In this document: one piece after another, positions 1-34,407 of the stretch
Layout of the letters: every line of letters begins with the position of its first letter
How positions within the stretch are numbered: position 1 is the first letter of the stretch
DNA from: a virus
Taxonomy: Duplodnaviria > Heunggongvirae > Uroviricota > Caudoviricetes
Length of the DNA stretch: 35,546 nucleotides
IMG/VR virus record: IMGVR_UViG_2778261064_000019
Direction: 5' to 3' (one strand)
Made by a program: the position numbers and the translations under genes
The notes under the pieces: model-generated
Seen by the model: only the letters and a program-made list of their open reading frames with translations
What the model was told of the DNA's origin: nothing
The model's database searches: none

Positions 1-1200
1 ATGCTGACCGATACCAAACTGAAAAACCTCAAAGCGCGGGAAAAACTTTATAAAGTTGCAGACCGTGATGGGCTGTATGTAACCGTATCTCCCAAGGGAT
101 TGGTGACGTTTCGCTATGACTATCGAATCAATGGTCGTCGTGAAACGTTAACTATTGGTCGCTATGGTGACGGTATTTCTCTGGCGCAGGCGCGCGAAAA
201 ATTAGTGGAAGCCAAAAAACGCGTAAATGCAGGAATATCGCCCGCTGGAGAGAAGCGTGACGGTAAAACAAAGCGAAAAGAAGAAAAGACACTCCACGAT
301 TTTACCGTCAGCTACATGAAACACACCCGGCTGGCGGACAGCACAAGGGCGATGAAGCAAAGCATTATCGACAGAGACATCACGCCAGTATGGGGGCGCA
401 AGCTGCTGTCAGAGATAACCCCCTCTCTCCTACGTGAGTATTGCGACAAGATAAAAGCGCGTGGTGCGCCAGCGACGGCGATTCAGGTTCGCAATATCGT
501 TAGTGCGGTATTTAAGTTCGCCGCGCTTCACGGCGACTATTACCCCAATCCTGCCGAAGAGGTTTTACCGGCTTCAATTGCGACATTCGAAGCGCGCGAC
601 AGGGCGCTCAAGCCAGAGGAGATAGGCTGGTTTTTCAATCAGCTTGAACAAACGGGTACATTACCCACCATCAAGCTGGCCATTAAATTGGTTTTATTAA
701 CGATGGTACGTAAAAGTGAACTGCTGAACGCTCCGTGGGGTGAGGTTAATTTTAATGCCTGCCTTTGGACGATTGACGCCAGCCGGATGAAGGGATCACG
801 GGATCATAATGTTTATCTGTCCCGGCAGGCACAGGACATTCTGATTGCCCTGAAAATGTGCGCAGGAAGCAGTGATTGGGTTTTGCCTTCATGCAATCAG
901 TCGTCGCATAAGACCATGTCGGCGGCGACCTTAAACCGGGTCATTAATCTTACGGTTAAGCAGGCGCAGGAACGGGGGATCAGGCTGGCGTCGTTTTCCG
1001 TTCACGATATGCGCCGAACGGCATCGACGTTATTGCATGAGGCGGGGTTTAATTCCGACTGGATAGAAAAATGCCTCGCGCACGAGGAAAGAAGCGTCAG
1101 AGCCGTTTATAACAAAGCGGAATACGCAGAGCAGCGCCGTGATATGTTGCAGCAGTGGGCGGATATGGTTGATGGGTGGATCAAGCAATACCGCCCGTAA
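1..1200 (+). CDS. int: Tyrosine integrase, P4/CP4-57-like family
   Basis: 399-aa ORF. N-terminus LTDTKLKNLK...DGLYVTVSPKG...FRYDYR is typical of P4-type integrases; C-terminal region HDMRRT...AHEERSVRAVY fits the tyrosine-recombinase catalytic region. ORF starts at the window edge, so the true 5' end and the att site are not visible. Confidence 0.85.
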   Translation: MLTDTKLKNLKAREKLYKVADRDGLYVTVSPKGLVTFRYDYRINGRRETLTIGRYGDGISLAQAREKLVEAKKRVNAGISPAGEKRDGKTKRKEEKTLHDFTVSYMKHTRLADSTRAMKQSIIDRDITPVWGRKLLSEITPSLLREYCDKIKARGAPATAIQVRNIVSAVFKFAALHGDYYPNPAEEVLPASIATFEARDRALKPEEIGWFFNQLEQTGTLPTIKLAIKLVLLTMVRKSELLNAPWGEVNFNACLWTIDASRMKGSRDHNVYLSRQAQDILIALKMCAGSSDWVLPSCNQSSHKTMSAATLNRVINLTVKQAQERGIRLASFSVHDMRRTASTLLHEAGFNSDWIEKCLAHEERSVRAVYNKAEYAEQRRDMLQQWADMVDGWIKQYRP

Positions 1201-1203
1201 GTA

Positions 1204-1458
1204 CTATGCGGGGATCTTGGTACCAGAGCGCTTTGGGACTTTGGCCAGATTTTTCTGTACCGCGTTATCAATATGGTGATGGTTATTTTCCTGCCGTGCT
1301 TTGAGCCAGCGTTCCACTTCCTCTTTGTCCCACGCGACGGCGCGCTTCGTTAGCGCAAAACGTTTGGGAAACAGGCCTTTTTGCTCCAACGCATAAATCG
1401 TACTTTCAGAGAGTGGCACCATCTGTAAAAGCACGTTTTTTCTAATGGCAATTTTCAT
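1204..1458 (-). CDS. AlpA-family HTH regulator / excisionase-like protein
   Basis: 84-aa ORF convergent with int (3-bp gap). Segment STIYALEQKGLFPKRFALTKRAVAWDKEEVERWL resembles AlpA/phage regulatory protein family. Start may be the internal Met at 1422. Confidence 0.65.
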   Translation of the reverse strand: MKIAIRKNVLLQMVPLSESTIYALEQKGLFPKRFALTKRAVAWDKEEVERWLKARQENNHHHIDNAVQKNLAKVPKRSGTKIPA

Positions 1459-2269
1459 TGTTTATTCCTTTAATCCAAAGGCACTCAGTTCTGATAACAG
1501 ATCCTTTTTTACCAGCAGCGGCAGATTGCTTTGTCTCTTTACGCCAGCCGGTTAGCAAATCGTTATACATTTCGGTGTCGTAGCCGCTGATAACCACGCT
1601 TCCTTGTAACCGGGTGACGGTCTCCAGTAAGCGCAGGTGGGCACCATCGTCCATTTCGTGGCGATAATATTTGTTAGTCAGATTACGGGTGCTATGAACA
1701 TACGGCGGATCGACAAAATGCAGCGTGTCGGCGGCGTCATGATCCAGAATACACTGGATGGCATCGCGGTTTTCCACCAGAACCCCTTCAAAACGCTGAC
1801 CAACGGCGGCCAGATTATCGGGCATACGGCTCCAGATGTGTTGGGCCGTTCCACTGGCGCGTTTAGTGTCCAGCCGAAAGCCGGTAGTGCCTTTAGTTGC
1901 CCCGGCAGAACCGAAGCCCATCGTGGCGCGAATCACTAAACGCCTTGCCTGTTCAACAGAATTTTTCCCATAGCGATAGGCCGAAATAAACTCGGTGCGG
2001 GAATAGGGTGTCAGGCTGCAGGCTTCAACCAGTCTTTCGCGCAGTTGTGGGGTACGAAGAACGGCGAACAGGTTAACGACGTCGCCATCCAGATCGTTGT
2101 AAACCTCGGCGTAGCTACGTGGTTTTCTGAGCAGTACGCTGGCTGCACCGCCGAAGGGTTCCACATAGCATCTGTGGGCCGGAAAGTGGCTAATGATCCA
2201 CGGAGCTAGTCGCCACTTGCCGCCGTGGTAGCGGATTGCAGGGTGCTTAATCATCCAGTTTTTCTCCAC
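1442..2269 (-). CDS. DNA N6-adenine methyltransferase (Dam-like, orphan)
   Basis: 275-aa ORF with N-terminal AdoMet-binding motif YVEPFGGAASVLL and catalytic DPPY motif (FVDPPYVHSTRN). No adjacent restriction enzyme gene. Confidence 0.8.
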   Translation of the reverse strand: MEKNWMIKHPAIRYHGGKWRLAPWIISHFPAHRCYVEPFGGAASVLLRKPRSYAEVYNDLDGDVVNLFAVLRTPQLRERLVEACSLTPYSRTEFISAYRYGKNSVEQARRLVIRATMGFGSAGATKGTTGFRLDTKRASGTAQHIWSRMPDNLAAVGQRFEGVLVENRDAIQCILDHDAADTLHFVDPPYVHSTRNLTNKYYRHEMDDGAHLRLLETVTRLQGSVVISGYDTEMYNDLLTGWRKETKQSAAAGKKGSVIRTECLWIKGINNENCH

Positions 2270-2846
2270 GCCGTTCTACGTTCAGGTGTCGCCACTGCAC
2301 CGCAATCCGTTTCATCACCGCATTCCCCTCTGGGATCACCTCCTGCGGCTCCTTCATCAACATGACCCGCCCCCGAATAACGATCAGCGCTTGTTCCAGC
2401 AGGCCATAGTCCAGATAACAGAGATCGGGAATATCCAGTTGCCACACATAGCCATTCCATGCTGAAAGTAGCACTTGCGCGGCGGCGCGTCCGCCGCTGG
2501 TTTCTGTGAGCGCGATTTTGGCAAGTGTATTGACGGCTGCGCCATATTCCTCTGGCGTGACGCGGAGTTTCTGCTGGCTGTTATCTTCTTTTGCCAGCGT
2601 TAATAATCCAATCGGGTGTAATACGCCCAGCTCTTCCATCTTTTCTTTCAATGTTGCAGCTGTATTCCATCCAATTCTGAATTTGCGCTGCAGGCGGCTG
2701 ATACTGATAATGCCTTCCGCCTCGGCCAGTTCGACCGCTTTGGGATAGAGTTCATTGAGCCGATATTCGTAATCAGCGAAGGGCGCACCGCTATTCTCTG
2801 GCAGGCCAGAGAGTGTTTGTGAATTATTTCCAGAGGATTTCATCAT
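2247..2846 (-). CDS. Hypothetical protein with FtsK-gamma-like winged-helix segment
   Basis: 199-aa ORF in the same minus-strand gene string as primase and Dam. Segment ISISRLQRKFRIGWNTAATLKEKMEELGVL resembles the FtsK gamma DNA-binding domain, judged from memory only. Confidence 0.45.
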   Translation of the reverse strand: MMKSSGNNSQTLSGLPENSGAPFADYEYRLNELYPKAVELAEAEGIISISRLQRKFRIGWNTAATLKEKMEELGVLHPIGLLTLAKEDNSQQKLRVTPEEYGAAVNTLAKIALTETSGGRAAAQVLLSAWNGYVWQLDIPDLCYLDYGLLEQALIVIRGRVMLMKEPQEVIPEGNAVMKRIAVQWRHLNVERRGEKLDD

Positions 2847-2856
2847 AATTTCCTTT

Positions 2857-5514
2857 TTAACGTTGAAAAACCCAACACTTCACCGTCGCCGGGCGGCGCG
2901 GTGCGGCTGGGTAACGGCGGTTAAATTCAGCGTTGATGCCGCTGTTAACCGTTCTGACTTCAATAAACTTGTGGGTACGGCTGGTTTTTAGCACTCGCTT
3001 CAAATCGCTGATCGGCGGGATCTGCTGGCGGCGCTCGGTAGCCAGTTGAATAAAGTGGTTAAGGTTAACGGCGATAAGCTGTTCATCGCGCGAGTGGTTG
3101 AGCTGTGGTTCGTCGTCGCCATCGAGGAAGTCGAAAATATCCCAGAACTCCTGCACCAGAGGATGGTCGGCGCTGATGGCCTGTTGGCGCTCCAGACTGA
3201 GGCGGATAAACATTTCTCTGGTCGCCTGTAGCTGCTCTTCCGTGACCGGAATAACCAGCGCCAGCGCGTCGAGCAGCGCCATAAGCTGGGCGTGGTTTTT
3301 AATGATGCGGATATGGCGAATATCTGGGTGGGAGTGAAGTTGCTGCTCGTATAGCGGGATCTGACGGTTAACGCACTCCAGCACGGCCTGTTCCGCCAGC
3401 GCTGCCTTCAGCATAAAGCCGGAAAGCTGTTCTACCGGCAGGCGTTCGAGCTGCTCGGCAGCGACCTTGGTCTGAGTATTCTGGCCGCTGCGGTCGGTGT
3501 ACAGGTGAATAATACGTTCCAGCACCGGGTTAGAGGCGCTAACATCGGCGTTTTGCGCAATCACAATCGCGCCCCGGAACGGCGGTTCATAGGTCTCGTT
3601 GCCGCTGTTACGCAGACCGCGAGAACGCACCGACCGCCCGTTATAGGCGGTTTTCAGCTCTTCCCAATCAAAGCCACGCTGCTTTGCCCCCTCCTGATTA
3701 CGGTCACCCTCGATCAGCACCACCGGCATATTTGCTACCTGCGCAAAGTTGCGCGCGCGGGCGGCCAGCGTTGATTTAGACGGATCGAAACCTTCATAGT
3801 CGCGTCGGCCCAACAGTTTTCAGAGGAACTCTATCAGCGTGGTTTTACCGCTGCCGGGTTCGCCAACGATTTCCAGAAATGGAAAGCTCTTGTGCTTGTC
3901 GCGGATCTGTTCGGCAAACATCGTCCCAAACCAGTACGCCAGCGCCACAAACCCCTTTGCGCCAAACGCCTGCCAGAGTAGCTGGGGCCACTGGCTGTCC
4001 ATCTGTTTTAAATTGTCGTTCAGCGTCAGGCTGACCGACTGGTTCAGGCTTTTAAGGCTAAGTTTGCCCATGTCGAAGAAGTCTTCTTCGTTGAGTGTGT
4101 ACAGCCGACCATCGCGAACGGCCAGATCGTTGAACACGTAAGCGCGGTATTCTTTGCTGTAGCCGATAAAATCAGTGGTCTGGACAGTTTTGATTTTGGG
4201 AAGCTGCTTGAGCAGCAACTTATCTAACTGCTGACTGGTGCCGGTGAAGATGCCGCCCTGCGCGATATGCAGCAGGCGCTTTTTGAATTCTGAGCCGCTG
4301 GAAAGTTGGGAGCCGGTGAAGGTGTTTTTTATCGGTGGAGTGTCGTCGGGGAAGTTAATGCGAAAGTAATACCAGCTTTCGTCGGTAATGGTGTTGGCCT
4401 GATAGTAGAGGGTGGTCGGGTAGCAGTTGGCTATCTCAACAACGGCGGCTGACTCCTGTAGCGCTTTATGTTTGGCTTCTTCTTCGTCCAGCTCCTCTTT
4501 GCCGTTATACATCACGTTATCAAAGGCACGCATATAACGGTCAATATCCAGCTTGAACCAGTACAGGCGGCTGTCGAACTCGAAGTGAAACTCTTTGCGT
4601 TCGGTACGCTCATGCATCAGTAATGCTTTGGCATTCGGATTGGGAGCGATCAACAGTGAACCGTAGTAACGATATTTTTTAATCAGATCCGGGTTTAGCC
4701 GATCGCGCTGGTGCAAATCGTTCCAGTCCAGCTTGGTGCGGGAATAGGGCGTTTGTGCGGCGGTGGAAAGCCAGCCGTCGTCGCGGCTGCGTTTTACCCA
4801 GCGGCGGGTGTAATTCATGCCCGCTTTGTCGTTATCCAGCGCCCAGACCAGTAAAGGACGCTTTTTATCCACGAACAGCGCGGCCAGTTGGCTTAACGCC
4901 TGCGCCGGATAGTTGTTACAGGTCATCAGGGAAACGGCGGCAATGCCGTGGTGGTGCAGGGCGATAGCGTCAAAAATGCCCTCAACCAGCCAGATCTCCT
5001 GCTGTTCTTCCAGCTTAAGCGTTGGCAATTGCCACCATAGCCCGCTGTAAGCGCCGTGAAAATTGGCTTTGCGATCGCCGAAACGCTGTGGGCGGTCAAC
5101 GATCCGCTCCCACCACACGCCGTCAGCCAGCGGGAAACGCACAGTGGCCGAGCCGAGATCGCGCCGTGCGTCATAGTAGTTCTCTTGAGCGTAACAGTTA
5201 CGGAGCAGCGAAAGGTCAAAGCCGCGCATCTCGCGCAGGTAGGCATCGGCGGCGGCCTGTGGGTTTTCCGGGGTTGGGGGATATCTGTCTGACCAGCTTT
5301 CAAATAGATCCGGGTACACCTCTTTGATATGGATTTCGGCATTGCATTTATTCAGGCGACCGCAGCGCAGTACCCACGGGCTGATGGCGTAGGTGTACAG
5401 CTCTTTTTTCTGGCAGTCCGGGCAGACGCCCTGCCGCAGCCAGTCGCCCTGTTCTTTAAAGGAAAAATCGGCTAGCAGTCGCCGCGTAATTTCCTGATGA
5501 AGTTGTGGTTGCAT
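2857..5514 (-). pseudogene. P4 alpha-like primase-helicase interrupted by an in-frame TGA (fragments 3820..5514 and 2857..3813)
   Basis: The two ORFs are in the same frame, separated by a single TGA at 3820..3822 (translation ...GEPGSGKTTLIEFL*KLLGRRDYEGF...). N-terminal Cys-rich zinc-binding motifs (CPDCQKK, CGRLNKC) and a Toprim-like segment (LVEGIFDAIALHHHG); Walker A (GEPGSGKTT) sits just before the stop, and the helicase region continues after it. Confidence 0.6.
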
Positions 5515-5602: not shown

Positions 5603-5833
5603 TTACGCGATTTTCTGCTTTTGCAGAAATTGCCCGCGTGTGGATAGCGGTATGTGTATCTTAGGATTCGGGCAACCGCTGGGTACTACCGTTCCCATCA
5701 CGGTCTCCATCGCGATAAATGAAAACGAACAGTTAACGTTCTTGCACTGGTAATAGAGCTTACGTACCAGCGGTGACATATATTCGCTGCTGCGAATTAT
5801 CGCCTTACCGTCGCAGTGTGGGCATTTCATCAT
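5603..5833 (-). CDS. ogr: Ogr/Delta-family zinc-finger late-gene transcriptional activator
   Basis: MMKCPHCDGKAIIRSSE...YYQCKNVNCSFSF matches the Cys4 motif of P2 Ogr. Start set at ATG 5833 (AGGAG 7 nt upstream) rather than the longer ORF start at 5851. Monomer size (76 aa) is Ogr-like, not the duplicated P4 Delta. Confidence 0.85.
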   Translation of the reverse strand: MMKCPHCDGKAIIRSSEYMSPLVRKLYYQCKNVNCSFSFIAMETVMGTVVPSGCPNPKIHIPLSTRGQFLQKQKIA

Positions 5834-6156
5834 GTCCGATCTCCTTACCACTTTTAACTAACTGAAACACTAACGCTTTTCGTTAACGGACTGACGAAAT
5901 AGTGTGATGCCGTTCAAAAAAATGATTCTTGCCATGCTGGACATCGAACGGTTCTGCTCCAGCGCTAATGCTTACAGTTCCGCGATTTCAGCGGGGAGCA
6001 GACGCATTGCCACCGGTTTGTTCGACATCACCCCGCGGGGTGCTCGTGAGCGTAAGACGTTCTCATTTGTTTTCATGGTGGTATATTGTGGTTATTAACA
6101 TTACACAATCTATAATTCCCTCAATTGAGTGAATTGTCAATGGTAATTATATCCAA
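5834..6156. promoter_or_regulatory. Divergent intergenic control region between ogr (minus) and the XRE gene (plus)
   Basis: 323-bp non-coding gap between divergently transcribed genes. Contains a 14-bp perfect palindrome CACCCCGCGGGGTG (6029..6042), palindrome TCAATTGA (6121..6128), TATAAT (6111..6116) and TTGTCA (6135..6140). Promoter assignment is not resolved. Confidence 0.35.
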
Positions 6157-6495
6157 ATGAAAGAATTTGGCATCCGTTTGAAGGAAGAACGTATCCGACT
6201 TGGCCTTGATCAAGACGGCTTTGGACAACTTGGGGGCGTGAAGAAAAACGCACAAAGTAACTATGAGAATGGACTGCGCAAGCCGGACAGTGACTATCTT
6301 GCTGGCATAGCGGCAGCGGGAGTTGATGTTCTGTATGTTCTAACAGGCAACCGCACGCCTGTGGCTACGTTGTCCAGTAAAGAGAGTGTGTTGGTGGAGA
6401 ACTATCGTTCTGCTACGCCAGAACACCAGTCCACCCTTGACACGGTTAGCGCTGCGCTTGCGCAACCGGGAGTAGGGAAAGCAGCTAAGGGATAA
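6157..6495 (+). CDS. XRE-family helix-turn-helix regulator (candidate prophage repressor or cargo regulator)
   Basis: 112-aa ORF; N-terminal HTH pattern (IRLKEERIRLGLDQDGFGQLGGVKKNAQSNYENGLRKP) is typical of Cro/CI-type regulators. Divergent from the ogr-primase string, directly upstream of the AT-rich operon. Confidence 0.7.
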   Translation: MKEFGIRLKEERIRLGLDQDGFGQLGGVKKNAQSNYENGLRKPDSDYLAGIAAAGVDVLYVLTGNRTPVATLSSKESVLVENYRSATPEHQSTLDTVSAALAQPGVGKAAKG

Positions 6496-6535
6496 CGAGT
6501 AGAATGAATTTGGTTATTGTCTGTATGGAGGCAAA

Positions 6536-7108
6536 ATGAAGTTGAATAATCTGGTTGCTCTTTACAGGAACATGACAGAGCAAAAATTGGATAGGGTTAA
6601 ATTCCCATACAGACACAATAATTTACATTTTGATGTATTTTTCTTTATTGATGGAAAACCGTTTGAGCTTCTTTTCGGAGCATTAGGCGCTAATCTTTGC
6701 TTTCGTCTAAAAGTCGAGAAGGGATTCGTCATAAATCCTAATCTGGGAAGTGAGACTTATAAAGAATTATGCAAGGCGCTAGGTTTGAAATATGACCCTG
6801 CCAATCCATTTAGAACAAGTAAGTTTTTTGAAGATTTTGATGGGAAAATCCCTACATCGGTTACTGTTAAGAATAAGGCAAAATATACTGATATTGCTGT
6901 GCATGTCAGGGATGTTGAAGAAGCAGACAGAATATATTTCTGTGGATGGAAAAACAACAATGAAGAAAAGAGTCATGTTACTGAAGATAATTTAAAGAAA
7001 ACGAAAGAGTTTTTAGGGTATCAGGCTTTTCTTGTTTGTAAGGAAAAGAATATTAGCAGTAGATGGACTGATTTAGAAAATAAAGCAAAAGATTTTTATT
7101 TACCATAG
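6536..7108 (+). CDS. Hypothetical protein, AT-rich cargo operon gene 1
   Basis: 190-aa ORF with GGAGG-like RBS before the ATG. Strongly AT-biased codon usage unlike the flanking phage genes. No family recognised. Confidence 0.6.
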   Translation: MKLNNLVALYRNMTEQKLDRVKFPYRHNNLHFDVFFFIDGKPFELLFGALGANLCFRLKVEKGFVINPNLGSETYKELCKALGLKYDPANPFRTSKFFEDFDGKIPTSVTVKNKAKYTDIAVHVRDVEEADRIYFCGWKNNNEEKSHVTEDNLKKTKEFLGYQAFLVCKEKNISSRWTDLENKAKDFYLP

Positions 7109-7122
7109 GATTGTGAGGTTAT

Positions 7123-8271
7123 ATGTCTGATATTTCATTAGGGTGCGTGGTTGTTCATAGGTTGATAAAAGAGCAACATAAAGATTTCGATCACTCAAAA
7201 CCATATAGTCGCCGTGATACGGTTCTTGACCGAAATAATGAAATCGTAATTAAACTAGTGTCCAGTATAGCCGCATTGTATGGTAAAAAATCTAATAGCT
7301 CGCATTATGGTATATTTAATTTAGATGAAACACGCAGGGGGCCTTTTCCAGCGGAATTTGATAAATATCGGAATGATACATCCAAGAAGTTAGACGATGA
7401 ATTGTTTATAGGATTATCAAAAAATGTTATGCATCAGTTATATATTGAGGCAAAGGATCGACCTGCTGCATCAGGAGGATTACTTCTTTTTGCTGATTAT
7501 ATCAGTAAATCCGTGCGTTACTTTCTTATTGCAATGATTAAGCAAAAGGAAGGTATAGTTATTAGTGATAAATTAGAGCCAAAGGAGTTAGAGCATCTTG
7601 ATCTGGCAAAACTAAACCAGGCGGCACGAATAAACTATGATTTGTATGATAAATATATTTCCGCTGATGAGAATGAAAGACAGGATGTTAATTATTTAAG
7701 TTTTGTTAGTCCCAGTTCTAACCAGACAACTTCAGGGTATTTCATTACTGCCTTAGGTTGTGATAAAGGTAATACATCAACTAAAGCTACGAGTAATTTA
7801 ATTAATGAATCTTTTAACTTCTTCAGAAATCATCAAGAATTAAAGGATAATGCCCGTAAATTTAAAAATGAAATTATTGAGTATTTATTCGATTGTTCTG
7901 AAAATAACATTTCAGCTAAGCTCTCTGTTGTTAGTGAGATGGCGGCGAAGCATATGGTTAATTTAGAAGATGACATTAAAGATAAATTGTCAGAAGAATT
8001 ATATGCTCATTTGAATAGTGAAAGTATTCGTGTGCCTGTGGAATTTAGGGTAAGCAAATCAGTAGTTAAGAAAAACAGAAATATTAAATATACAAGTGAT
8101 AATGTTAATTTTGAGTTTAAATCTAGTTTACTAGGCAATACTCTTGATAATGAGATATGCTATAATAAGAAAACTGGACATTTAACTTTTACTCGGATTA
8201 CTCCTGAGAAAAAAAGTGAAATAGCTCAATTGCTTGATGAGTTAATAAAAGAAAGAAATAGCGAAAAATAA
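7123..8271 (+). CDS. YejK/NdpA-like (NA37 family) nucleoid-associated protein homologue, cargo gene 2
   Basis: 382-aa ORF, 14 bp after gene 1 with a GTGAGG RBS. Full-length pattern similarity to E. coli YejK as recalled: MSDISLGCVVVHRLIK vs MSLDINQIALHQLIK; ASGGLLLFADYISKSVRYFLIAMI vs [25 protein letters not shown]. Not verified by search. Confidence 0.6.
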   Translation: MSDISLGCVVVHRLIKEQHKDFDHSKPYSRRDTVLDRNNEIVIKLVSSIAALYGKKSNSSHYGIFNLDETRRGPFPAEFDKYRNDTSKKLDDELFIGLSKNVMHQLYIEAKDRPAASGGLLLFADYISKSVRYFLIAMIKQKEGIVISDKLEPKELEHLDLAKLNQAARINYDLYDKYISADENERQDVNYLSFVSPSSNQTTSGYFITALGCDKGNTSTKATSNLINESFNFFRNHQELKDNARKFKNEIIEYLFDCSENNISAKLSVVSEMAAKHMVNLEDDIKDKLSEELYAHLNSESIRVPVEFRVSKSVVKKNRNIKYTSDNVNFEFKSSLLGNTLDNEICYNKKTGHLTFTRITPEKKSEIAQLLDELIKERNSEK

Positions 8272-8282
8272 GGTTGCTTAAT

Positions 8283-8912
8283 ATGTCATGTTTTGAAACG
8301 GTTGTTGAGCTTTTCAGATATGTAGGGCGTCCTAAATTTGATGCTATTAATAATCGTTTTTCAGCAACTATTTCTTATGATGCTCATATATATGAACTCT
8401 TAGTTTCTTTGCAACCTCATACAGCGTGGGGAGAAATTGAAGAGATTGTCATTGATGATGTGGATATAGATGTTGATGATAGCCTTCCCGCTAAAGGAAC
8501 ATCAATAACACTGACAATCTCTATATCAACTGGAGCTAGTGAGTCATTTTTTATCGATATTAAAGATCTAATTCAAAAGTCTCCGATGTTAAATAGAGGT
8601 ATTTTAAGAAAGTCTTTTTACTTGGTTGAGGAAGATTTTTATTTTAATGAAGGAATGGTTGAGGGATTAGCAAAAATACCAGAACTATCTGTTTTAAAGA
8701 ATCTTTGTGATTTTATTTTATGTCTATCAAAAGTTGCACACTACAGCAATAGTAAAAGTGATGATGTATGCCATAAGTTAGTTTTCTTGAAAAATACTAA
8801 TGCTAAGTCATTACCTTTAATTATTGAAACTAATGTTGATTATTCACTTCTTTTAACAGGTATTAAGGATTTAAAAATCATCGAATCTTTTTCTGATGAA
8901 AAAAAGCTATAA
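8283..8912 (+). CDS. Hypothetical acidic protein, cargo gene 3
   Basis: ORF track starts at TTG 8274; the first ATG is at 8283, about 11 nt after the gene 2 stop. Contains acidic stretch EEIVIDDVDIDVDDS. No family recognised. Confidence 0.55.
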   Translation: MSCFETVVELFRYVGRPKFDAINNRFSATISYDAHIYELLVSLQPHTAWGEIEEIVIDDVDIDVDDSLPAKGTSITLTISISTGASESFFIDIKDLIQKSPMLNRGILRKSFYLVEEDFYFNEGMVEGLAKIPELSVLKNLCDFILCLSKVAHYSNSKSDDVCHKLVFLKNTNAKSLPLIIETNVDYSLLLTGIKDLKIIESFSDEKKL

Positions 8913-8956
8913 CGGATGATAATTATTTTGAGCGAAAAGGGATTTTCATTAATACG

Positions 8957-9538
8957 GTGGTCGATTTTCTTGAATCAATCGATGTAAAGAAACAGTTTCA
9001 TTTTTTATTCTGTGAGTGGGATGAATTTCTAAAACTATACCATAATAACCTCGGTGTATATCTTAGTGGTTTTTCATTTCATAAAGTAAGAAAGGAAGTG
9101 GCAGAGGCAGAAGCTAATTTAGCTGAGCGTTTTTCAAAAATAATGTCAGACATGATAGCTAAGCTTTTAGGTATTCCTGTTTCTTTGGTTGCTACTTTTG
9201 GCATGATAAAATTAAATACCCTGCCGGAAATGTTAGTGGTTTTTTTAGGTGTATTGCTCACGTCGATAATTATGTTTTTTATTGTAAGAAGTCAATACAC
9301 ACAGTTTAGGATGATTTGTGATGCTAAAGATATTATATTTTCCCCATTAGTGAAAAAATCTGTAGGTTATACAGAAGATTTGAAAAAATTAGTATGCAAT
9401 GCAAAGGATAATTTAGACAAAAATCAGGTCATGTTAAATCGTTACCTTCTTTTCTTTCAATGCTTATGCTGGATTCCGACAGCCTTAGGTGGTGGAATGA
9501 TCTTAATGGCTATTATGGTTCATTTAGGATTACTATAA
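8957..9538 (+). CDS. Predicted multi-pass membrane protein, cargo gene 4
   Basis: Hydrophobic segments IPVSLVATFGMI, MLVVFLGVLLTSIIMFFIV and YLLFFQCLCWIPTALGGGMILMAIMVHLGLL. Track start is a GTG at 8957, so the true start is uncertain. Stop codon overlaps the gpD stop convergently. Confidence 0.5.
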   Translation: MVDFLESIDVKKQFHFLFCEWDEFLKLYHNNLGVYLSGFSFHKVRKEVAEAEANLAERFSKIMSDMIAKLLGIPVSLVATFGMIKLNTLPEMLVVFLGVLLTSIIMFFIVRSQYTQFRMICDAKDIIFSPLVKKSVGYTEDLKKLVCNAKDNLDKNQVMLNRYLLFFQCLCWIPTALGGGMILMAIMVHLGLL

Positions 9539-16124: not shown

Positions 16125-16147
16125 CTTGTAACCACTGGCACTACAAG
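16125..16147. promoter_or_regulatory. Dyad CTTGTA-N11-TACAAG upstream of FI (candidate Ogr-responsive late promoter element)
   Basis: Inverted repeat with imperfect extended arms (GGCTTCCACTTGTA / TACAAGCAGAAGCG, 16117..16155), 70-100 bp upstream of the FI start. Same half-sites and spacing at three other late-operon positions. Confidence 0.5.
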
Positions 16148-21168: not shown

Positions 21169-21199
21169 TCTGCCGGTTTCGCGTTCATACCGAGGTACA

Positions 21200-21843: not shown

Positions 21844-21866
21844 CTTGTAGGATAATGGGCTACAAG
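21844..21866. promoter_or_regulatory. Dyad CTTGTA-N11-TACAAG upstream of gpV (candidate late promoter element)
   Basis: Inverted repeat CTTGTAG-N9-CTACAAG about 50-65 bp upstream of the gpV ATG. Confidence 0.5.
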
Positions 21867-21905: not shown

Positions 21906-22241
21906 TTAACCGTGCGCAGCCTTCATCAGTGTATCGTTAATCCACTGGTTAACGCTTTTACCGGAGACTTCTGCCGCAACGTTAATGGCAGAGTGAATTT
22001 CAGGTGGAATACGCAGGCTGATTTTTCCGCTGGCCGGACGCAACGGCTCCCGGCCCCGTTCCTCGCAGTAAGCCAGATAGTCGTCTACCGCCTCTTCAAA
22101 CGCTTTACGCAGATCGGCAACATTATCGGCATGAAAGCCAATGACATCCCGAATGCCTGCAACGTGACCAACAATGCATTGATCTTCATCGCTGTATTCA
22201 ATTTTTGCGGCATAGCCTCTATATGTCATGGTATTCATCAT
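21906..22241 (-). CDS. hicB: HicB-family antitoxin
   Basis: 111-aa ORF 4 bp-overlapped with the upstream hicA-like gene. C-terminal RHH-like segment (KISLRIPPEIHSAINVAAEVSGKSVNQWINDTL). Confidence 0.75.
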   Translation of the reverse strand: MMNTMTYRGYAAKIEYSDEDQCIVGHVAGIRDVIGFHADNVADLRKAFEEAVDDYLAYCEERGREPLRPASGKISLRIPPEIHSAINVAAEVSGKSVNQWINDTLMKAAHG

Positions 22242-22501
22242 GGTGTTACCCCTACAGCTTCAAGGAATGTTCTGGCATCGCGAACCTGATAGGCTTTCGC
22301 TTCTTTTTCCGGGTGTGGACGATGAAATGAAGCCACAACCTGATTAATTTCAAACCTGACGCGGGAACCGTTTCCTTCCGTAGCAATAGCCCCCAAAGCA
22401 ATAAATAAGGCTTCTATTTTTCGCCATTCCAGCGTGACAGGTGTTGGCGTAGAAAAAACAGCTTGTAAGGTTTTTTTATGTTTGGCGCTTAACGTATTCA
22501 T
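22238..22501 (-). CDS. hicA: HicA-family toxin (mRNA interferase)
   Basis: 87-aa ORF with GS..RF.......FHRPHP.KE pattern consistent with the HicA fold, in hicA-hicB order. Confidence 0.65.
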   Translation of the reverse strand: MNTLSAKHKKTLQAVFSTPTPVTLEWRKIEALFIALGAIATEGNGSRVRFEINQVVASFHRPHPEKEAKAYQVRDARTFLEAVGVTP

Positions 22502-25554: not shown

Positions 25555-25577
25555 CTTGTAACTGAGGACAGTACAAG
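25555..25577. promoter_or_regulatory. Dyad CTTGTA-N11-TACAAG with 13-bp extended arms upstream of gpX
   Basis: Near-perfect inverted repeat GGCTTCCGCTTGTA-N11-TACAAGCGGAAGCG (25547..25585). The surrounding ~70 bp is near-identical to the element upstream of FI. Confidence 0.5.
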
Positions 25578-25596: not shown

Positions 25597-25917
25597 CTAT
25601 GCCTCGTCGCTGTCGGTATTGATGATTTTCAGTTCAGCGGACTTCTGGAGCTGGATCAGCGCCGGGATCAGAAGCGCGGTAGCCGACAGGCCGTGCCCTA
25701 ACTGGCACAGGCTTTCAGCGGAGAATTCCAGCACGTTGCTGTCGGCAAAGGAGACGAAGGTTTTACCCAGAAAATGCAGGCCGTGACATAGCCCGGCATA
25801 GCACTCTTCGCTGCTGTTGGCCAGTTGCAGAGTATCGTCGGCGTTCAGGTGTGAAATATCCAGCTTGCGGATCGCGTCCGCCAGTTCAGAGGACAGAATA
25901 TTGGTTTCAGGCACCAT
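25597..25917 (-). CDS. Hypothetical protein
   Basis: 106-aa ORF, last of three tightly coupled small ORFs between the Doc module and gpX. No family recognised. Confidence 0.4.
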   Translation of the reverse strand: MVPETNILSSELADAIRKLDISHLNADDTLQLANSSEECYAGLCHGLHFLGKTFVSFADSNVLEFSAESLCQLGHGLSATALLIPALIQLQKSAELKIINTDSDEA

Positions 25918-26083
25918 GGCGCACCTCCAGCGGTTTGCAGGAGACGAACACCAGCGGGAAACCCGCCAGCAGGCCGCGAGCCTCTGTCTCTGTTGTCGCC
26001 AGTACGGATACCAGACGCAGTGGCTGGATCTCGCGCAGCAGGCGGTTGGAACGGGCGTTCAGGAAGGTGTAGAGCTTAGGCAT
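25910..26083 (-). CDS. Hypothetical small protein (57 aa)
   Basis: Not in the ORF track (below 60 aa). ATG at 26081..26083 preceded by GGAGGTGAA; translates MPKLYTFLNARSNRLLREIQPLRLVSVLATTETEARGLLAGFPLVFVSCKPLEVRHGA; stop overlaps the next ATG. Confidence 0.3.
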
Positions 26084-26315
26084 GGTTCACCTCCTCTACC
26101 GGGGTGCTACGTGGGGGATTGAACGACTGAGCGATAACGCTCAGTGCCTGCTTACCTTCGGGATGCGCAAGACGGTAGTAAGTTAACAGGACTTGCTCCT
26201 GTGGGCTGAGATCGTCCCACGTGAGAGTTGTGTTACTATTAGCGGTAGCCATAGCATTACCTCGATTAATGTTGTGGTTAGATGCCTTGGCAGTGTTCGC
26301 GCACTGTCGGGGCAT
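26076..26315 (-). CDS. Hypothetical protein
   Basis: 79-aa ORF (possibly starting at internal Met, MATANSNTTL...). First of the three coupled small ORFs. Confidence 0.35.
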   Translation of the reverse strand: MPRQCANTAKASNHNINRGNAMATANSNTTLTWDDLSPQEQVLLTYYRLAHPEGKQALSVIAQSFNPPRSTPVEEVNHA

Positions 26316-26394
26316 TGTTATTTATGTCATGTGATAGTAATGTGTCATCACACAGTACTACATTAACCTGAGTGTGATTTAGGTGTCAATACAC

Positions 26395-26562
26395 ATGAAT
26401 GAAAGAAGAGGAAATCCTCCGTTTCAGTTTCGACTCGATCCTGAACTGAGAAACGCGATGGAAGAAGCTAAAAAGCAAGATGGTGATGAATCACTGGCTG
26501 CGTGGATTAAGCGAATTATCAGAAAAGAGCTTCAGTCACGGGGTATAGAACCAAAAGATTAG
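26395..26562 (+). CDS. Arc/MetJ-type ribbon-helix-helix DNA-binding protein
   Basis: 55-aa ORF not in the track. FQFRLDPELRNAMEEAKKQDGDESLAAWIKRIIRKEL follows the Arc-like beta-strand/helix pattern. Inverted repeat TGTGAT-N10-ATCACA (26331..26352) lies upstream. Confidence 0.55.
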   Translation: MNERRGNPPFQFRLDPELRNAMEEAKKQDGDESLAAWIKRIIRKELQSRGIEPKD

Positions 26563-26608
26563 CAGATAGGTATATACTTTGAATAAAGAGTATTAGAGGT
26601 AAAAAATA

Positions 26609-26797
26609 ATGGCGAAGAATAGCAGTCCTGCCAGCCGATACGGTATCAAGGTCGTAAAAAGAGACAGTATGAGCGGGCAGTTTGTACCCGTCGAAATGAA
26701 GCTGGACGGCCCGGAAGGTGAGCGTGTGATTAAAAAGTCGGCAGAGCGTATTTATGCCAGACACAACAAAGTCATTAAGGCGCTGGCTAACCGATGA
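26609..26797 (+). CDS. Putative antitoxin partner of Doc (family unassigned)
   Basis: 62-aa ORF whose stop overlaps the doc ATG (ATGA), the classic coupled toxin-antitoxin arrangement. Sequence does not resemble Phd as recalled. Confidence 0.45.
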   Translation: MAKNSSPASRYGIKVVKRDSMSGQFVPVEMKLDGPEGERVIKKSAERIYARHNKVIKALANR

Positions 26798-27171
26798 TTG
26801 ATGCACATTTGGTGATTGGAATTCACGACTTTATTCTTGCTCATGAGCCGGGATTGGTTGGTTATCAGGATGCTGGCCGGGTCGAGGCAACACTGGCACG
26901 GGTGGATAACCGTATTCTGTATGAGCAGATGAATGATATTTTCCAGATCGCCGCATCTTATGCGGTTGCCATCGCCAGAGGGCACGTTTTTGCTGATGCC
27001 AACAAGCGAACGGCACTGGTGACGGCGTTGACATACCTTGATATGCAGGGTGTGAACCTCAAGCGAACACAAAAGCTGGAAGATATTATGGTGGATGTGG
27101 CTGAGGGAACGCTAAATCTGGATGATTTAGCCGATATTTTCTATACCCTTAGTGATGTAAATGCTTCCTGA
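26794..27171 (+). CDS. doc: Doc (death-on-curing) / Fic-family toxin
   Basis: 125-aa ORF with the Fic/Doc active-site motif HVFADANKRTAL. Confidence 0.8.
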   Translation: MIDAHLVIGIHDFILAHEPGLVGYQDAGRVEATLARVDNRILYEQMNDIFQIAASYAVAIARGHVFADANKRTALVTALTYLDMQGVNLKRTQKLEDIMVDVAEGTLNLDDLADIFYTLSDVNAS

Positions 27172-27176
27172 CGTTA

Positions 27177-27201
27177 CAGCCCGACAGATCGGGCTGTTTT
27201 T
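27177..27201 (+). terminator. Rho-independent terminator after doc
   Basis: 8-bp stem CAGCCCGA / TCGGGCTG with a 4-nt loop, followed by TTTTT. Confidence 0.6.
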
Positions 27202-27203
27202 AA

Positions 27204-27440
27204 TTATGCCGCCTCAATACCCGCGTTGGTTAACATATAGTGGCCCCAGTGGTTTTTTTTCAGGTAACCGGCCAGTTCCATCTGCGTCACAATAAATTCA
27301 GCGTTAACCATTTCTATACCTGCGTAGTCGGCCAGATCGCGCAGCGGCCATGTGCTGCGAACGCCGACGCTAACTATGGTGTCTCTGATGCGGCGAGCGG
27401 TATCGGTCATTGGGCGGGTTCTGGCTGCCTGAATAGTCAT
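27204..27440 (-). CDS. Hypothetical protein
   Basis: 78-aa ORF downstream of gpL on the minus strand. No family recognised. Confidence 0.4.
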   Translation of the reverse strand: MTIQAARTRPMTDTARRIRDTIVSVGVRSTWPLRDLADYAGIEMVNAEFIVTQMELAGYLKKNHWGHYMLTNAGIEAA

Positions 27441-30617: not shown

Positions 30618-30689
30618 AACGTTCAGTCCCGGCGTTGGCTAAATAAGCGAATGGTCGGGTAGTCCTCCGCTATCAGGCAACGGGCTTCG

Positions 30690-30712
30690 CTTGTAATCAT
30701 CCGGGTTACAAG
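30690..30712. promoter_or_regulatory. Dyad CTTGTA-N11-TACAAG in the O/P divergent intergenic region
   Basis: Inverted repeat at the centre of the 155-bp gap between the divergent O and P genes. Confidence 0.5.
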
Positions 30713-30772
30713 CGGCATTGCTACGCGCAGACAGCGGCTTGTTTACGCTGACGGCAGAAACGAGAGGACGTT

Positions 30773-32557
30773 ATGCCGCCAGACATCGAAAAACATCTGC
30801 TTGCCCTTCAGGACGAAGATCCACGCCGTAAAGCCCGCTATCTGTACTGGCAGGGTTTTCGCATTGCGCGGATCGCTGAACTATTGGGGGTGAAAGTTAC
30901 CACGCTGCATAGCTGGAAGCGGCGCGATGGCTGGGACGAATCCGCCCCGCTGGAGCGGGTGACGGCGGTGACCGAAGCGCGGCTGATCCAGCTCACGGTG
31001 AAGGAAAATAAGGAGGGAAAGGATTTTAAGGAGATCGACCTGCTCTGGCGGCAGATGGAGCGCGGGGCAAGGGTTGAACGCTATCAGCAGGGGGGCAATG
31101 AGGTCGACCTGAACCCTGCTCTTGCGAAGCGTAACGCCGGGCCGCGCAGACAGCCGGAAACCAACCATATCAGCGAGGAGCAGGCGGAGAAGCTGAAACA
31201 GTTATTTCTGGACGGACTGTATCCGCACCAGAAACACTGGTACCGCGCCGGGCTGGAACACCGTATCCGCGATATCAACAAGTCGCGCCAGATTGGGGCG
31301 ACGATGTTCTTCGGGCGGGAAGGATTTATGGATGCGGTGGAGAGCGGGCGCAACCAGATCTTTCTCTCGGCCTCCAAAGCGCAGGCGCACCAGTTCCGCC
31401 AGTACATTGTCGATTTTGCTCGTGAGGCGGATGTTGAGCTGAAGGGCGAAGTCATTCACTTGCCGCATAATGATAGCCGGATGTATTTTCTCGGCACCAA
31501 TGCCCGCACCGCCCAGACCTATCATGGCAACCTGTATCTGGATGAATACTTCTGGATACACCGCTTTTTGGAACTGCGCCGTAACGCGGCGGGGATGGCC
31601 AGCCAGAAACGCTGGCGGCAGACCTACTTTTCCACACCGTCCAGCATTACCCACGAAGCCTATAAGTTCTGGACAGGGCAACTGTTCAACAAGGGCAGGC
31701 CGAAGAGCGAACAGATTCGACTGGATATCAGCCATCGGGCGCTGGCGGCGGGGCGTCTGTGTGAAGACGGCCAGTGGCGGCAAATCGTCACCGTTGAGGA
31801 TGCCATCAATCAGGGTTATGACCTGTTCGACCTTGAGCAACTCAGGCTGGAGAACTCGCCGGAAGAGTTCGCCAACCTGTTTATGTGCCAGTTTATCGAC
31901 GATACCGCATCGGTATTCCCACTAAGCATGTTGCAGGGTTGCATGGTCGATAGCTGGGAAGTCTGGGACGACTACAAGCCGTTTGCCCTGCGTCCGCTCG
32001 GCGAACGCTCGGTGTGGGTGGGGTACGATCCCGCATTAAGCGGTGACAGCGCCGGGTGCGTGATGGTCGCGCCGCCGGTCATTGAGGGCGGCAAGTTTCG
32101 GGTAATTGAAAAGCACCAGTGGCACGGGATGGACTTCGCGGCGCAGGCGGAAAATATCCGCAAAATTACCGAGCGCTATAACGTGACTTACATCGGTATT
32201 GACGTGACCGGCATCGGCCACGGCGTGCATCAACTGGTGAAACAGTTCTTCCCGGCAGTGCAGGCATTCTCTTATTCCCCAGAAGTGAAACAGCGTCTGG
32301 TGCTGAAAACGCTGGACGTTGTCCGTAAACGCCGACTGGAGTTTGACGCCGGATGGACGGATCTGGCGCAGGCGTTTATGGCAATTCGCAAAACCCTGAC
32401 TCCGTCCGGGCGTCAGGTGACCTTCGAGGCCAGCCGTTCGGAAGAAGTCTCCCACGCGGATCTGGCATGGGCGTGTATGCACGCCATTATCAATGAACCA
32501 CTGGAAAGCTCCGGCGGCGCGAACAGCGGGCGGGGCTTAATTAAGGTGTACGGATGA
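30773..32557 (+). CDS. P: Terminase large (ATPase) subunit gpP-like
   Basis: 594-aa ORF, size and divergent position as P2 P. Confidence 0.9.
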   Translation: MPPDIEKHLLALQDEDPRRKARYLYWQGFRIARIAELLGVKVTTLHSWKRRDGWDESAPLERVTAVTEARLIQLTVKENKEGKDFKEIDLLWRQMERGARVERYQQGGNEVDLNPALAKRNAGPRRQPETNHISEEQAEKLKQLFLDGLYPHQKHWYRAGLEHRIRDINKSRQIGATMFFGREGFMDAVESGRNQIFLSASKAQAHQFRQYIVDFAREADVELKGEVIHLPHNDSRMYFLGTNARTAQTYHGNLYLDEYFWIHRFLELRRNAAGMASQKRWRQTYFSTPSSITHEAYKFWTGQLFNKGRPKSEQIRLDISHRALAAGRLCEDGQWRQIVTVEDAINQGYDLFDLEQLRLENSPEEFANLFMCQFIDDTASVFPLSMLQGCMVDSWEVWDDYKPFALRPLGERSVWVGYDPALSGDSAGCVMVAPPVIEGGKFRVIEKHQWHGMDFAAQAENIRKITERYNVTYIGIDVTGIGHGVHQLVKQFFPAVQAFSYSPEVKQRLVLKTLDVVRKRRLEFDAGWTDLAQAFMAIRKTLTPSGRQVTFEASRSEEVSHADLAWACMHAIINEPLESSGGANSGRGLIKVYG

Positions 32558-33534
32558 ATAACTCAATGGCTTTCACCTTCGGTGAACCTGAAGCCCTGCT
32601 GGACAGGCGGGAAATACTGAACTATCTGGAGTGCGTGGACTTTGGCAAATGGTATGCGCCGCCGGTGGATTTTAATTCGCTGGCGCTGTCGTTCCGCGCT
32701 TCGGCGCATCATACCAGCCCGATCTGCGTGAAGCGCAACGTGCTGGTTGGTACCTTCATACCTCATCCGTTGTTGACCCGGCAGGCGTTCAGCCGCCTTG
32801 CGCTGGACTATCTGGTATTCGGCAATGCCTATCTGGAGCGGCAGGATAACCGGCTGGGCCAGCCGTTAACGCTGGTGCCTGCGCTGGCGAAGTATGTCCG
32901 GCGCGGCAAGGCGCTGGACAGCTATTTCTTTGTTCAGCCCGGTAAAGTGGATCATGAGTTTGCGTCGGGCAGTATCGGCCACCTGCTGGAGCCGGATATC
33001 AATCAGGAAATCTACGGCCTGTCGGAATACCTCTCTGCGCTGAACGCGGCATGGCTGGATAACTCCGCCACGCTGTTTCGCCGTCGTTACTACAAGAACG
33101 GCAGTCATGCCGGTTTCATCCTCTACCTGAGCGACCCGGCCCACAACGAGGCGGATATTGGGGCGTTACAGGAAGCGCTAGCGAACAGCCGTGGCCCCGG
33201 CAACTTCCGCAATCTGCTGATGTATCTGCCGAACGGCAAGCCAGACAGCGTAAAGGTTATCCCGATTGGCGAGGTGGCGGCGAAAGATAACTTCTCCGAT
33301 ATCAAGAGTGTCAGCCGTGACGACCAGTTAGCTGCGCACCGGGTACCACCTGCGCTCATGGGCGTGGTACCGAGTAACGCCGGTGGCTTTGGTGATGCCA
33401 TCAAAGCGGCGAAGGTATTCAACTGCAATGAGATCGAGCCGCTACAGGAACGGTTCAAGGAGCTGAACGACTGGCTGGGGCTGGAGGTTATTCGCTTCAA
33501 AAAGTACCGCCTTGCCGACGACGATTCAGAGTAA
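32554..33534 (+). CDS. Q: Portal protein gpQ-like
   Basis: 326-aa ORF overlapping the P stop by 4 bp. Confidence 0.85.
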   Translation: MNNSMAFTFGEPEALLDRREILNYLECVDFGKWYAPPVDFNSLALSFRASAHHTSPICVKRNVLVGTFIPHPLLTRQAFSRLALDYLVFGNAYLERQDNRLGQPLTLVPALAKYVRRGKALDSYFFVQPGKVDHEFASGSIGHLLEPDINQEIYGLSEYLSALNAAWLDNSATLFRRRYYKNGSHAGFILYLSDPAHNEADIGALQEALANSRGPGNFRNLLMYLPNGKPDSVKVIPIGEVAAKDNFSDIKSVSRDDQLAAHRVPPALMGVVPSNAGGFGDAIKAAKVFNCNEIEPLQERFKELNDWLGLEVIRFKKYRLADDDSE

Positions 33535-33579
33535 CCCCACCAACGACCAGCTCACTATCAGAGCCACCATGCGCCATTC

Positions 33580-33603
33580 AGCCCGCTTCCTGCGGGCTTT
33601 TTT
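33580..33603 (+). terminator. Rho-independent terminator after the portal gene
   Basis: Stem AGCCCGC / GCGGGCT with a 5-nt loop, followed by TTTTT. Confidence 0.65.
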
Positions 33604-33853
33604 ACGCCTTCTCACCGCCAGAATCCCCGGTCAGCACCGCCAGCGCGCGGTTGTGACCCCGCCACGCCTGCGCAGTAAATAGATCGCTTTTTTTGCACTG
33701 GTGCGTAAGCGTCGGAGCGGGCCATAACGGGAGGGCGTGGTCGGGTTGCAGTTGCAGCAGAATCATGCGGATTTATACGCCCTGTGTATGCGCCAGAGAC
33801 GATCGGGAGGGCAATGCCACGATCCTTTCGGTATTTTTGGATCGCCTGTCGGG

Positions 33854-34138
33854 AAAAGGTAACCTCAGTAATTAGCAGTAAAAATAATGCTTATTCTATT
33901 GTTTATAAAAGAGAAATTTGGTTACCCCTAAAAGGTAATCTGAGGTAACCCAAAAGGTAACCTGTTTTATATTTTCATATAAATCATGATGTTACAAATT
34001 AGAAGACATCACTATTATAAAAGGTAACCTGATTACGCTTTGGTTACCAAAAGATTACCTTTCTCTGTTTTTGAAAAATCCTTTTTATTCATTAAGTTAT
34101 TTTGATTTTTCGTTGCAGGTTACTAAGGTTACCTTTTT
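33854..34138. repeat. Cluster of about nine AAAGGTAACC-type short repeats in both orientations
   Basis: GGTAACC/GGTTACC cores at 33858, 33920, 33944, 33956, 34023, 34042 and 34127, plus GGTAATC variants at 33933 and 34053. Most are flanked by an A-tract; three sit at 11-12 bp spacing (33933, 33944, 33956). Region is A/T-rich and non-coding. Confidence 0.7.
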
Positions 34139-34407
34139 CCGAAGTCCCCACGGACTTTGGTATATATAGATAGGTTAAAAAGTAGCCGTTATGTTTGCCA
34201 GCTATTTACTTCCCATTCTTCCACTGGCCAGCATGTTAATATGCCCGGTAATGATAACTAGTTGCCATTGGGTTACTTTCTTCTGTGGACGGTAAAACTG
34301 ACGGTAAATTGGGTTGTGGGTCTCGATTTAGATTAGTAAAATCAAGTGATTAAGTCGACTGTAGATAATCGAGTGGGAATGATTTGATCCCTGCACTATG
34401 AATTAGC

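Follow-up and report, generated by a model that had tools for sequence, protein, structure and literature searches.

The attachment site attP of the Ralstonia phage RSY1 (Arsyunavirus, Peduoviridae) lies "in the vicinity of cos" (PMC5694545), and the layout of Smp131 has been described in the same terms as that of the RSY1/phiCTX type (PMC3931495). For the related phages phiCTX and RSA1, a 2011 survey of the regulatory regions of P2-like phages could not identify the repressor and the Cox/Apl equivalent (PMC3448106). Here we analyze a prophage contained in a 35,546-nt stretch of caudoviral DNA (IMG/VR record IMGVR_UViG_2778261064_000019; hereafter the window), in which P2-like late genes are found together with an integrase and a primase. 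An earlier note on this stretch had called its architecture non-canonical, and proposed a hybrid lineage or a rearranged remnant. Drawing on gene identities, boundaries, the empty host site, cos and dyad motifs, and the conservation of the layout, we are instead highly confident that the window represents one integrated temperate myovirus of the phiCTX/RSA1/RSY1 branch of the Peduoviridae, and not of the P2/186 branch. Judged by gene order, the layout is the regular architecture of this already described branch and is not new, because the same order recurs in phages of the phiCTX/RSY1 type, in Edwardsiella and in Erwinia, and because none of 112 loci with a primase of the phiCTX orf37 family carries P2 A, B, C or cox. 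The lysogenising phages phiCTX, RSA1, RSY1 and Smp131 share the layout and nothing in it is rearranged; the three earlier labels are thus inappropriate.

The insertion and its boundaries

Our comparison stretch was a 50-kb segment of Escherichia coli 24A16CRGN010 (NZ_CM148325.1; coordinates in this segment are prefixed L001), which corresponds to the window with a further 8 kb on its left and 6 kb on its right. The first 18.8 kb and the last 16.8 kb of the window match it at 99.95-99.97% identity, with 15 differences, each a substitution or a single-base indel. The flanking host genes are guaA, which ends 225 nt before window position 1, and, on the right, yfgI (34476-35015). A 14-bp core, GAGTGGGAATGATT, lies at both ends of the element (Table 1), and these are its only two copies in the 50 kb with up to two mismatches allowed, no third copy being present internally or elsewhere. 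The right-hand copy falls within 33600-34450, where the earlier note had suggested seeking a direct repeat. The host-side junction matches at 17 of 17 positions a published 17-nt core, of which 14 nt are identical at both junctions; this core, attgagtgggaatgatt, contains GAGTGGGAATGATT and is the proven attP/attB core of epsilon15, phiV10 and vB_EcoP_ZX5 (PMC9782041). Joining the outer flanks reconstructs an empty guaA-yfgI site that 4567 of 5426 E. coli genomes contain without interruption, with identities of up to 99.8%. Hence, the element is a precise 34,607-bp insertion between these two genes. The window contains no tRNA or tmRNA gene, and such a gene was rejected as the integration target, which is the 3' end of guaA.

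The putative arm-type integrase sites, GACGGTAAA, form two clusters. One occupies the interval from attL to int and reaches the 5' end of int, with exact copies at L001 7943, 7969, 8259 and 8301 and, at L001 7905, a copy with one mismatch; the other lies 62-83 nt to the left of the attR core, with exact copies at L001 42685 and 42697. Their occurrence at both ends is the pattern that would be expected for the arm sites of a single attP. Two proposals of the earlier note are borne out by these boundaries: att lies between int and the portal end, with one core to the left of int and the other at the far right; and prophage and virion maps are collinear, given the positions of cos and attR. The note's own check for two adjacent elements also comes out in its favour, there being one att pair in the 50 kb and none internally. 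The extent given there, 1-34140, was too short at both ends, as the element starts 236 nt to the left of window position 1 and ends with the attR core.

The early region and its relatives

We compared the locus by tblastn with eight reference phages, namely P2, P4, 186, Fels-2, phiCTX, RSA1, RSY1 and ESSI2_ev239. Against the six frames of the 50 kb at E <=0.01, no match was obtained for P2 int, C, cox, orf78, B, orf80-83, A, orf91, tin or old, or for 186 int, cI, apl, cII, A or tum; ogr is the only match to the early genes of P2 and 186. The reported lack of P2 early genes in the window therefore stands, and none lie immediately outside it in these 50 kb either. The product of the ogr gene is 47% identical to RSY1 orf40 and 42% to P2 Ogr, as against 28-32% to P4 Delta.

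The primase of the early operon, which comprises 885 aa where intact, as in L001, matches phrog_1139 over residues 3-885 of 885. Its full-length identity is 48% to phiCTX orf37, 58% to RSY1 ORF47, 46% to the Smp131 protein, 48% to that of Dobby and 53% to that of Escherichia phage ESSI2_ev239; RSA1's own primase gave no tblastn match to it. The order previously described, with ogr, primase, a hypothetical gene, Dam and AlpA converging on a P4-type integrase, is correct, but the description of the primase as P4 alpha-like is not. Homology to P4 alpha was rejected, as tblastn, Pfam and hhalign point to a shared Toprim domain alone: tblastn with P4 alpha returned no match; the Pfam domains of the primase are Toprim_2 and a weak P-loop only, versus Zn_Ribbon_Prim, Toprim_3, D5_N, DUF5906 and Pox_D5 in P4 alpha; and hhalign of a 9-member family profile against P4 alpha covered the Toprim region only, with a probability of 30%. 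PDB sequence searches with the primase and the family profile recovered only weak DnaG Toprim matches (E 0.01) and none for the NTPase half. Both proteins follow the same general plan, with Cys residues clustered at the N-terminus, a Toprim domain, an NTPase with a Walker A motif and a further domain at the C-terminus; on these comparisons they are working analogues rather than one family.

Like P4, the element has an arm-type integrase (30% identical to P4 Int over 410 aa, E 2e-37), a Vis/AlpA protein (39% identical to P4 Vis and 38% to RSY1 ORF48, in a PHROG family annotated as excisionase and regulator), a zinc finger of the Delta/Ogr type and a large primase-NTPase replication protein. Unlike P4, it encodes a full virion, and its primase has only the Toprim domain in common with alpha. 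P4 alpha, epsilon, sid, psu and cII found no tblastn match in the 50 kb, where Int (30%), Vis (39%) and Delta (28%) were the only P4 hits. An Rfam scan returned no RNA family at gathering score, and so no P4 CI-type RNA immunity family, a result that extends to the P4-type immunity RNA only if the library holds it. One might read these likenesses, together with the low-GC (low G+C content) island that divides the halves of the locus, as the trace of two adjacent elements, a P4-like satellite with int, AlpA, Dam, primase and Ogr/Delta beside a P2-like remnant devoid of early genes. Nevertheless, the single att pair, the arm sites at both outer ends and the one cos, the missing P4-specific genes, the membership of the primase in the phiCTX orf37 family, and the same linkage in plaque-forming RSY1 and phiCTX and in the Edwardsiella and Erwinia prophages bring this proposal close to refuted, and we hold it to be extremely improbable.

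The preferred reading of a single phage of the phiCTX/RSA1/RSY1 branch also accommodates the integrase, which has 60-62% identity with its counterparts in epsilon15, SPN1S and Tyrion. Together with the att core it is, as judged from these similarities, the guaA-targeting module of epsilon15 and phiV10. This integration module alone is common to the element and the Uetakevirus phages epsilon15, phiV10 and vB_EcoP_ZX5, which are podoviruses with structural and replication genes unrelated to those of the element. The shared module and core, along with the presence of related elements in just 4 of 5426 complete E. coli genomes, might recommend a recent one-off hybrid that arose in E. coli when a P2-like phage recombined with an epsilon15-like podovirus. 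Against this, 60% identity speaks of an old exchange, the linkage of int, AlpA and primase persists in Edwardsiella at 80-92% identity, the GC content of the element (55-60% in the late genes, higher than in the flanking host sequence) points to an origin outside E. coli, and swapping of integrase modules is routine in the family, RSY1 and RSA1 differing likewise. Such a recent hybrid is thus extremely improbable.

Among isolated phages RSY1 offers a close parallel in layout. It has the P2 late order, an ogr homologue in the early operon and an orf37-family primase (58%), followed by the AlpA/Vis-like ORF48, a convergent arm-type integrase, attP near cos, and then Q; it likewise has cargo hot spots at several positions and four late promoter regions. 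It differs in its target, a tRNA-Ser gene, with an integrase only 25% identical, in having more small early genes between ogr and primase, and in bearing type VI secretion system (T6SS)-type cargo between cos and Q, where the element has nothing; its late proteins are 37-70% identical to those of the element. In the Pseudomonas phage phiCTX (Citexvirus) the primase orf37 is similar over its full length, P2 A, B, C and cox are lacking, int ends the early region, and some 630 nt separate attP from cosR, so that int and the portal side form the ends of the prophage. Unlike the element, phiCTX has a P2-type int co-oriented with the early operon, no AlpA, and the ctx toxin gene between cos and Q. 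At the matching switch and ogr positions RSA1 has homologues (ORF35, ORF36 and ORF38), as have RSY1 and phiCTX, and in phiCTX, RSA1, RSY1 and the element alike ogr belongs to the early operon, downstream of a divergent helix-turn-helix (HTH) regulator. With P2 and 186 (Peduovirus, Eganvirus) the element shares the late gene set and order, an Ogr-type activator with dyad late promoters, a 19-nt GC-rich cos beside the Q terminator, and moron hot spots at the orf30 and Z/fun positions. In contrast to them, it is without C/cI, cox/apl, B, A and a P2-type int, its ogr is in the early operon and internal to the prophage, and its attP lies beside cos and not between ogr and int.

The layout recurs in prophages of other enterobacteria. 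An Edwardsiella ictaluri prophage has the same order of D, cargo, HTH gene, ribbon-helix-helix gene, ogr, primase (92% identical), DUF7673, Dam, AlpA and int, and the same order as far as DUF7673 is seen in an Erwinia metagenome-assembled genome (primase 82%) and in IMG/VR contigs. The DUF7673 gene beside the primase is kept in close relatives. The early-operon Dam gene is present in Edwardsiella and absent in the E. coli relatives GMF054 and L725, in both of which the FtsK-gamma N-terminus of the DUF7673 protein is missing as well.

Switch region, late genes and cargo

Table 1. Features of the element and its boundaries, in window coordinates unless prefixed L001
Feature	Coordinates	Strand	Basis or remark
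attL core GAGTGGGAATGATT	L001 7764-7777		236 nt left of window position 1; over guaA stop codon
Tyrosine integrase, arm-type (P4-type architecture)	1-1200	+	Pfam Arm-DNA-bind_3, Phage_int_M, Phage_integrase
AlpA/Vis-type excisionase and regulator	1204-1458	-	Pfam Phage_AlpA, E 7e-13; convergent on int
Dam-type N6-adenine methyltransferase	1442-2254	-	Pfam MethyltransfD12; early-operon accessory gene
DUF7673 protein	2247-2846	-	Pfam DUF7673, FtsK_gamma (N-terminal winged-helix domain); phrog_6694
Primase with P-loop NTPase domain	2857-5514	-	phiCTX orf37 family (phrog_1139); interrupted by TGA 3820-3822
Ogr/Delta-type zinc-finger late activator	5603-5833	-	Pfam Ogr_Delta, E 1e-19; in early operon
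Arc-like ribbon-helix-helix gene	5870-6028	-	phrog_3431 Arc-like repressor, E 6e-19; first in early operon
Candidate face-to-face switch promoters	6060-6087; 6140-6112	+; -	consensus matches
Candidate dyad operators	6082-6144		inverted repeats
HTH_3-type candidate immunity repressor (HTH112)	6157-6495	+	Pfam HTH_3, HTH_31; PHROG repressor families; divergent from early operon
Low-GC cargo island	6536-9538	+	GC 30-42%; between gpD and repressor
Cargo: DUF6037 gene	within 6536-9538	+	Pfam DUF6037
Cargo: YejK-like nucleoid-associated protein (NAP)	7123-8271	+	Pfam NA37, E 5e-45
Cargo: DS1_2-like gene, split	8283-8912 and 8957-9538	+	A8-to-A7 frameshift near 8898
Late genes D, U, T, E', E, FII, FI, (Dam2), fibre-assembly, H, I, J, W, V	from 9533	-	PGAP names, tblastn
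Late genes continued: (HicBA), S, R, lysis, X, (Doc island), L, M, N, O	to 30617	-	PGAP names, tblastn
Late-promoter dyad CTTGTA-N11-TACAAG	16125-16147		upstream of FI
Late-promoter dyad CTTGTA-N11-TACAAG	21844-21866		upstream of V
Late-promoter dyad CTTGTA-N11-TACAAG	25555-25577		upstream of X
Late-promoter dyad CTTGTA-N11-TACAAG	30690-30712		between O and P
Terminase large subunit P and portal Q	30773-33534	+	61-63% and 54-62% identical to P2-family homologues
Q terminator	33580-33598		
Predicted cos, GGCGTGGCGGGGTCACAAC then CGCGCGC	33650-33668	-	116 nt past Q stop, just beyond Q terminator
AT-rich field of palindromic AGGTWACC repeats	33857-34134		between cos and attP arm
Two arm-type Int sites GACGGTAAA, P arm	34288-34308	+	exact copies at attR side
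attR core GAGTGGGAATGATT, 14 bp	34371-34384	+	repeat of attL 14-mer

The placement of ogr in an early operon on the minus strand is as reported, but it does not directly follow D: the two genes are separated by 3.7 kb (5834-9538) occupied by the Arc-like gene on the minus strand and then, on the plus strand, by the HTH repressor gene and the low-GC cargo island. The HTH protein is 43% identical to RSA1 ORF35, found at the switch position of RSA1, and homologues of it occur in 78 of the 112 orf37-family loci. At the switch position of phiCTX (L004 26027-26227, minus strand) we observed an unannotated open reading frame (ORF) whose product is 49% identical to the HTH protein, and this is a candidate phiCTX repressor. 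The Arc-like gene is an intact 52-aa ORF in L725 and GMF054. Its product, a candidate Cro/Cox analogue, has conserved counterparts in Edwardsiella, Erwinia and Arsenophonus, and also in the N-terminal part of RSA1 ORF36. A 64-aa ORF called by PGAP on the plus strand (5904-6098) was rejected as a shadow of this conserved gene. Position, fold family and conservation make the HTH and Arc-like genes reasonable candidates for the repressor and the Cox/Apl equivalent of the phiCTX/RSA1 branch.

The late genes from Q to D are in P2 order, as earlier stated and as the PGAP names and the tblastn table both indicate; at the protein level they are 31-70% identical to their counterparts in P2, 186, Fels-2, phiCTX, RSA1 and RSY1. 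The best match of the terminase in the phage collection is at 64%, and the portal falls to 65% beyond two close relatives. Because of these values the lineage is probably a genus without an isolated representative. The dyad CTTGTA-N11-TACAAG has exactly four matches in the window, all of them in late intergenic regions, and its TGT-N13-ACA spacing differs from the N12 of P2 and 186; the TGT-N12-ACA spacing was tried and rejected, as it shows no excess (6 found versus about 9 expected). The predicted cos resembles the ends of several phages, matching 186 at 15 of 15, RSA1 at 20 of 21 and phiCTX at 37 of 43 positions, and also P2, and its position relative to Q is as in P2. Beyond cos, 9 of the 11 AGGTWACC matches in the window are concentrated in the AT-rich repeat field, against about one expected in the whole window; this field is a candidate origin or protein-binding array. 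The IMG/VR contigs of two close relatives stop 12-15 nt after Q, short of the field. Tail-fibre gene H (18074-19339) has three 44-aa tandem repeats fewer than in NZ_CM148325.1, an in-frame difference of 132 aa that, from the sequences compared, is repeat-number variation in the fibre shaft.

Of the cargo genes between gpD and the repressor, the split gene is a single 418-aa ORF in GMF054. The NAP and the split gene show weak NCBIfam matches to the antiphage families DS1_1 and DS1_2 (81 and 71 bits, respectively, against curated cut-offs of 330 and 315). PADLOC had no match for the DUF6037, NAP or split genes, and DUF6037 is not mentioned in the papers searched. At the same hot spot E. coli L725 (L010 7493-9579) has genes for a NAP and a RelA_SpoT (toxSAS) protein, a pair described as type I PANGU (bioRxiv 10.64898/2026.04.06.716658), and the YejK nucleoid-associated domain is among the domains newly validated in defence by DefensePredictor (PMC13092281). 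The site is a candidate hot spot at which alternative nucleoid-protein defence operons are swapped. Elsewhere, the prophage has HicA/HicB at the P2 orf30 position (21906-22501), a moron island between L and X (25597-27440) with a YlcI-like gene, a small ORF, the Doc toxin and at least three hypothetical genes, and a second Dam-type methyltransferase, different from that of the early operon (1442-2254), at the P2 Z/fun moron position (16160-16918). Transcription of X and of the lysis genes, which follow the Doc island, is apparently re-established from the dyad at 25555.

State of this copy and proposed working

The coding changes that separate the window from NZ_CM148325.1 comprise 7 missense, 1 nonsense and 3 synonymous differences. 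In the Arc-like gene, the GAA codon of the invariant E19 is TAA (E19*, 5972-5974), a change common to NZ_CM148325.1. In the primase gene, TGG is replaced by TGA at 3820-3822 (W565*) in the window copy only; W565 is invariant in a 9-sequence family alignment and lies just after Walker A, so that the stop splits the P-loop domain. Because the near-identical RefSeq genome has TGG at codon 565, the primase gene is, by this comparison, a pseudogene in this copy. The gpW gene (20851-21200, minus strand) has a 1-nt deletion near 21181, at codon 7 and outside any homopolymer, that is also confined to the window; the predicted product is MYLGMNAKPAEC*, and the deletion predicts the loss of an essential tail protein. 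The fourth lesion is the A8-to-A7 frameshift that splits the 418-aa cargo gene. With the Arc-like, primase and baseplate gpW genes broken, the copy is probably non-viable, and most likely can neither replicate nor build baseplates.

These lesions bear on the view that the element is a degraded or rearranged remnant of a canonical P2/186-type prophage, the early region of which was deleted and replaced. Such a view would gain from the four inactivating lesions and the preponderance of missense and nonsense over synonymous changes against the nearest relative. Yet, functional phages of the phiCTX/RSY1 type have an identical gene order, the length of 34.6 kb corresponds to a complete P2-family genome, the late genes, cos, late promoters and att arms are all present, and the genes concerned are all intact in the relatives GMF054 and L725. 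Point lesions, and not rearrangement, have probably made this copy defective, and its origin as a P2/186-type remnant is very unlikely.

For the phage of the phiCTX/RSA1/RSY1 branch that we favour, we infer the following working, down to what the repressor and the Arc-like protein do, how the phage replicates and where its origin lies. Recombination by the tyrosine integrase at the 14-bp core over the guaA stop codon inserted the element. The attR core lies 702 nt from cos, and after excision attP would be at this same distance from it; the virion DNA would then run from cos through Q, P and O to D, the cargo, the repressor, the Arc-like gene and ogr, and on through the primase, DUF7673, Dam, AlpA and int to attP and back to cos. 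The HTH protein would silence the prophage from the face-to-face promoters, and derepression would lead to expression of the leftward early operon, with the Arc-like protein, Ogr, the primase/NTPase, DUF7673, Dam and AlpA. The primase/NTPase may drive theta-type replication, replacing the rolling-circle system of P2 A and B, while AlpA and Int would excise the element, Ogr would activate the four late promoters at their dyads, and the terminase would cut at the P2-type cos. As a tentative extension, which we consider less likely than not, the HTH/Arc-like pair may be the immunity switch of the branch and the AGGTWACC field the origin used by the primase/NTPase; E19* may have locked the prophage, the lesions in primase and gpW being later decay, and the locked element may have been kept for its defence and toxin-antitoxin cargo.

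Certain points weigh against this overall picture. Excision, replication and packaging are read from the sequence, the origin is a candidate, and the repressor and Cro-like roles are assigned by position, fold family and conservation. The late proteins are just 31-70% identical to any reference phage; therefore, the assignment to the branch draws mainly on the early region and on the placement of att and cos. Errors of assembly might account for some of the four lesions, as against which two of these also occur in a RefSeq assembly made independently, and the gpW deletion lies outside any homopolymer.

Our findings imply that P2-like prophages without C, cox, B and A are not to be annotated as hybrids or remnants. 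The phiCTX/RSY1 layout extends to the Enterobacterales, where it is represented in E. coli, Edwardsiella and Erwinia, though it is rare in E. coli. The element is a clean case of an integration module common to podoviruses and a myovirus, and it reveals a hot spot for cargo genes in the interval from gpD to the repressor. Moreover, it supplies candidates for the switch genes of the phiCTX/RSA1 branch.

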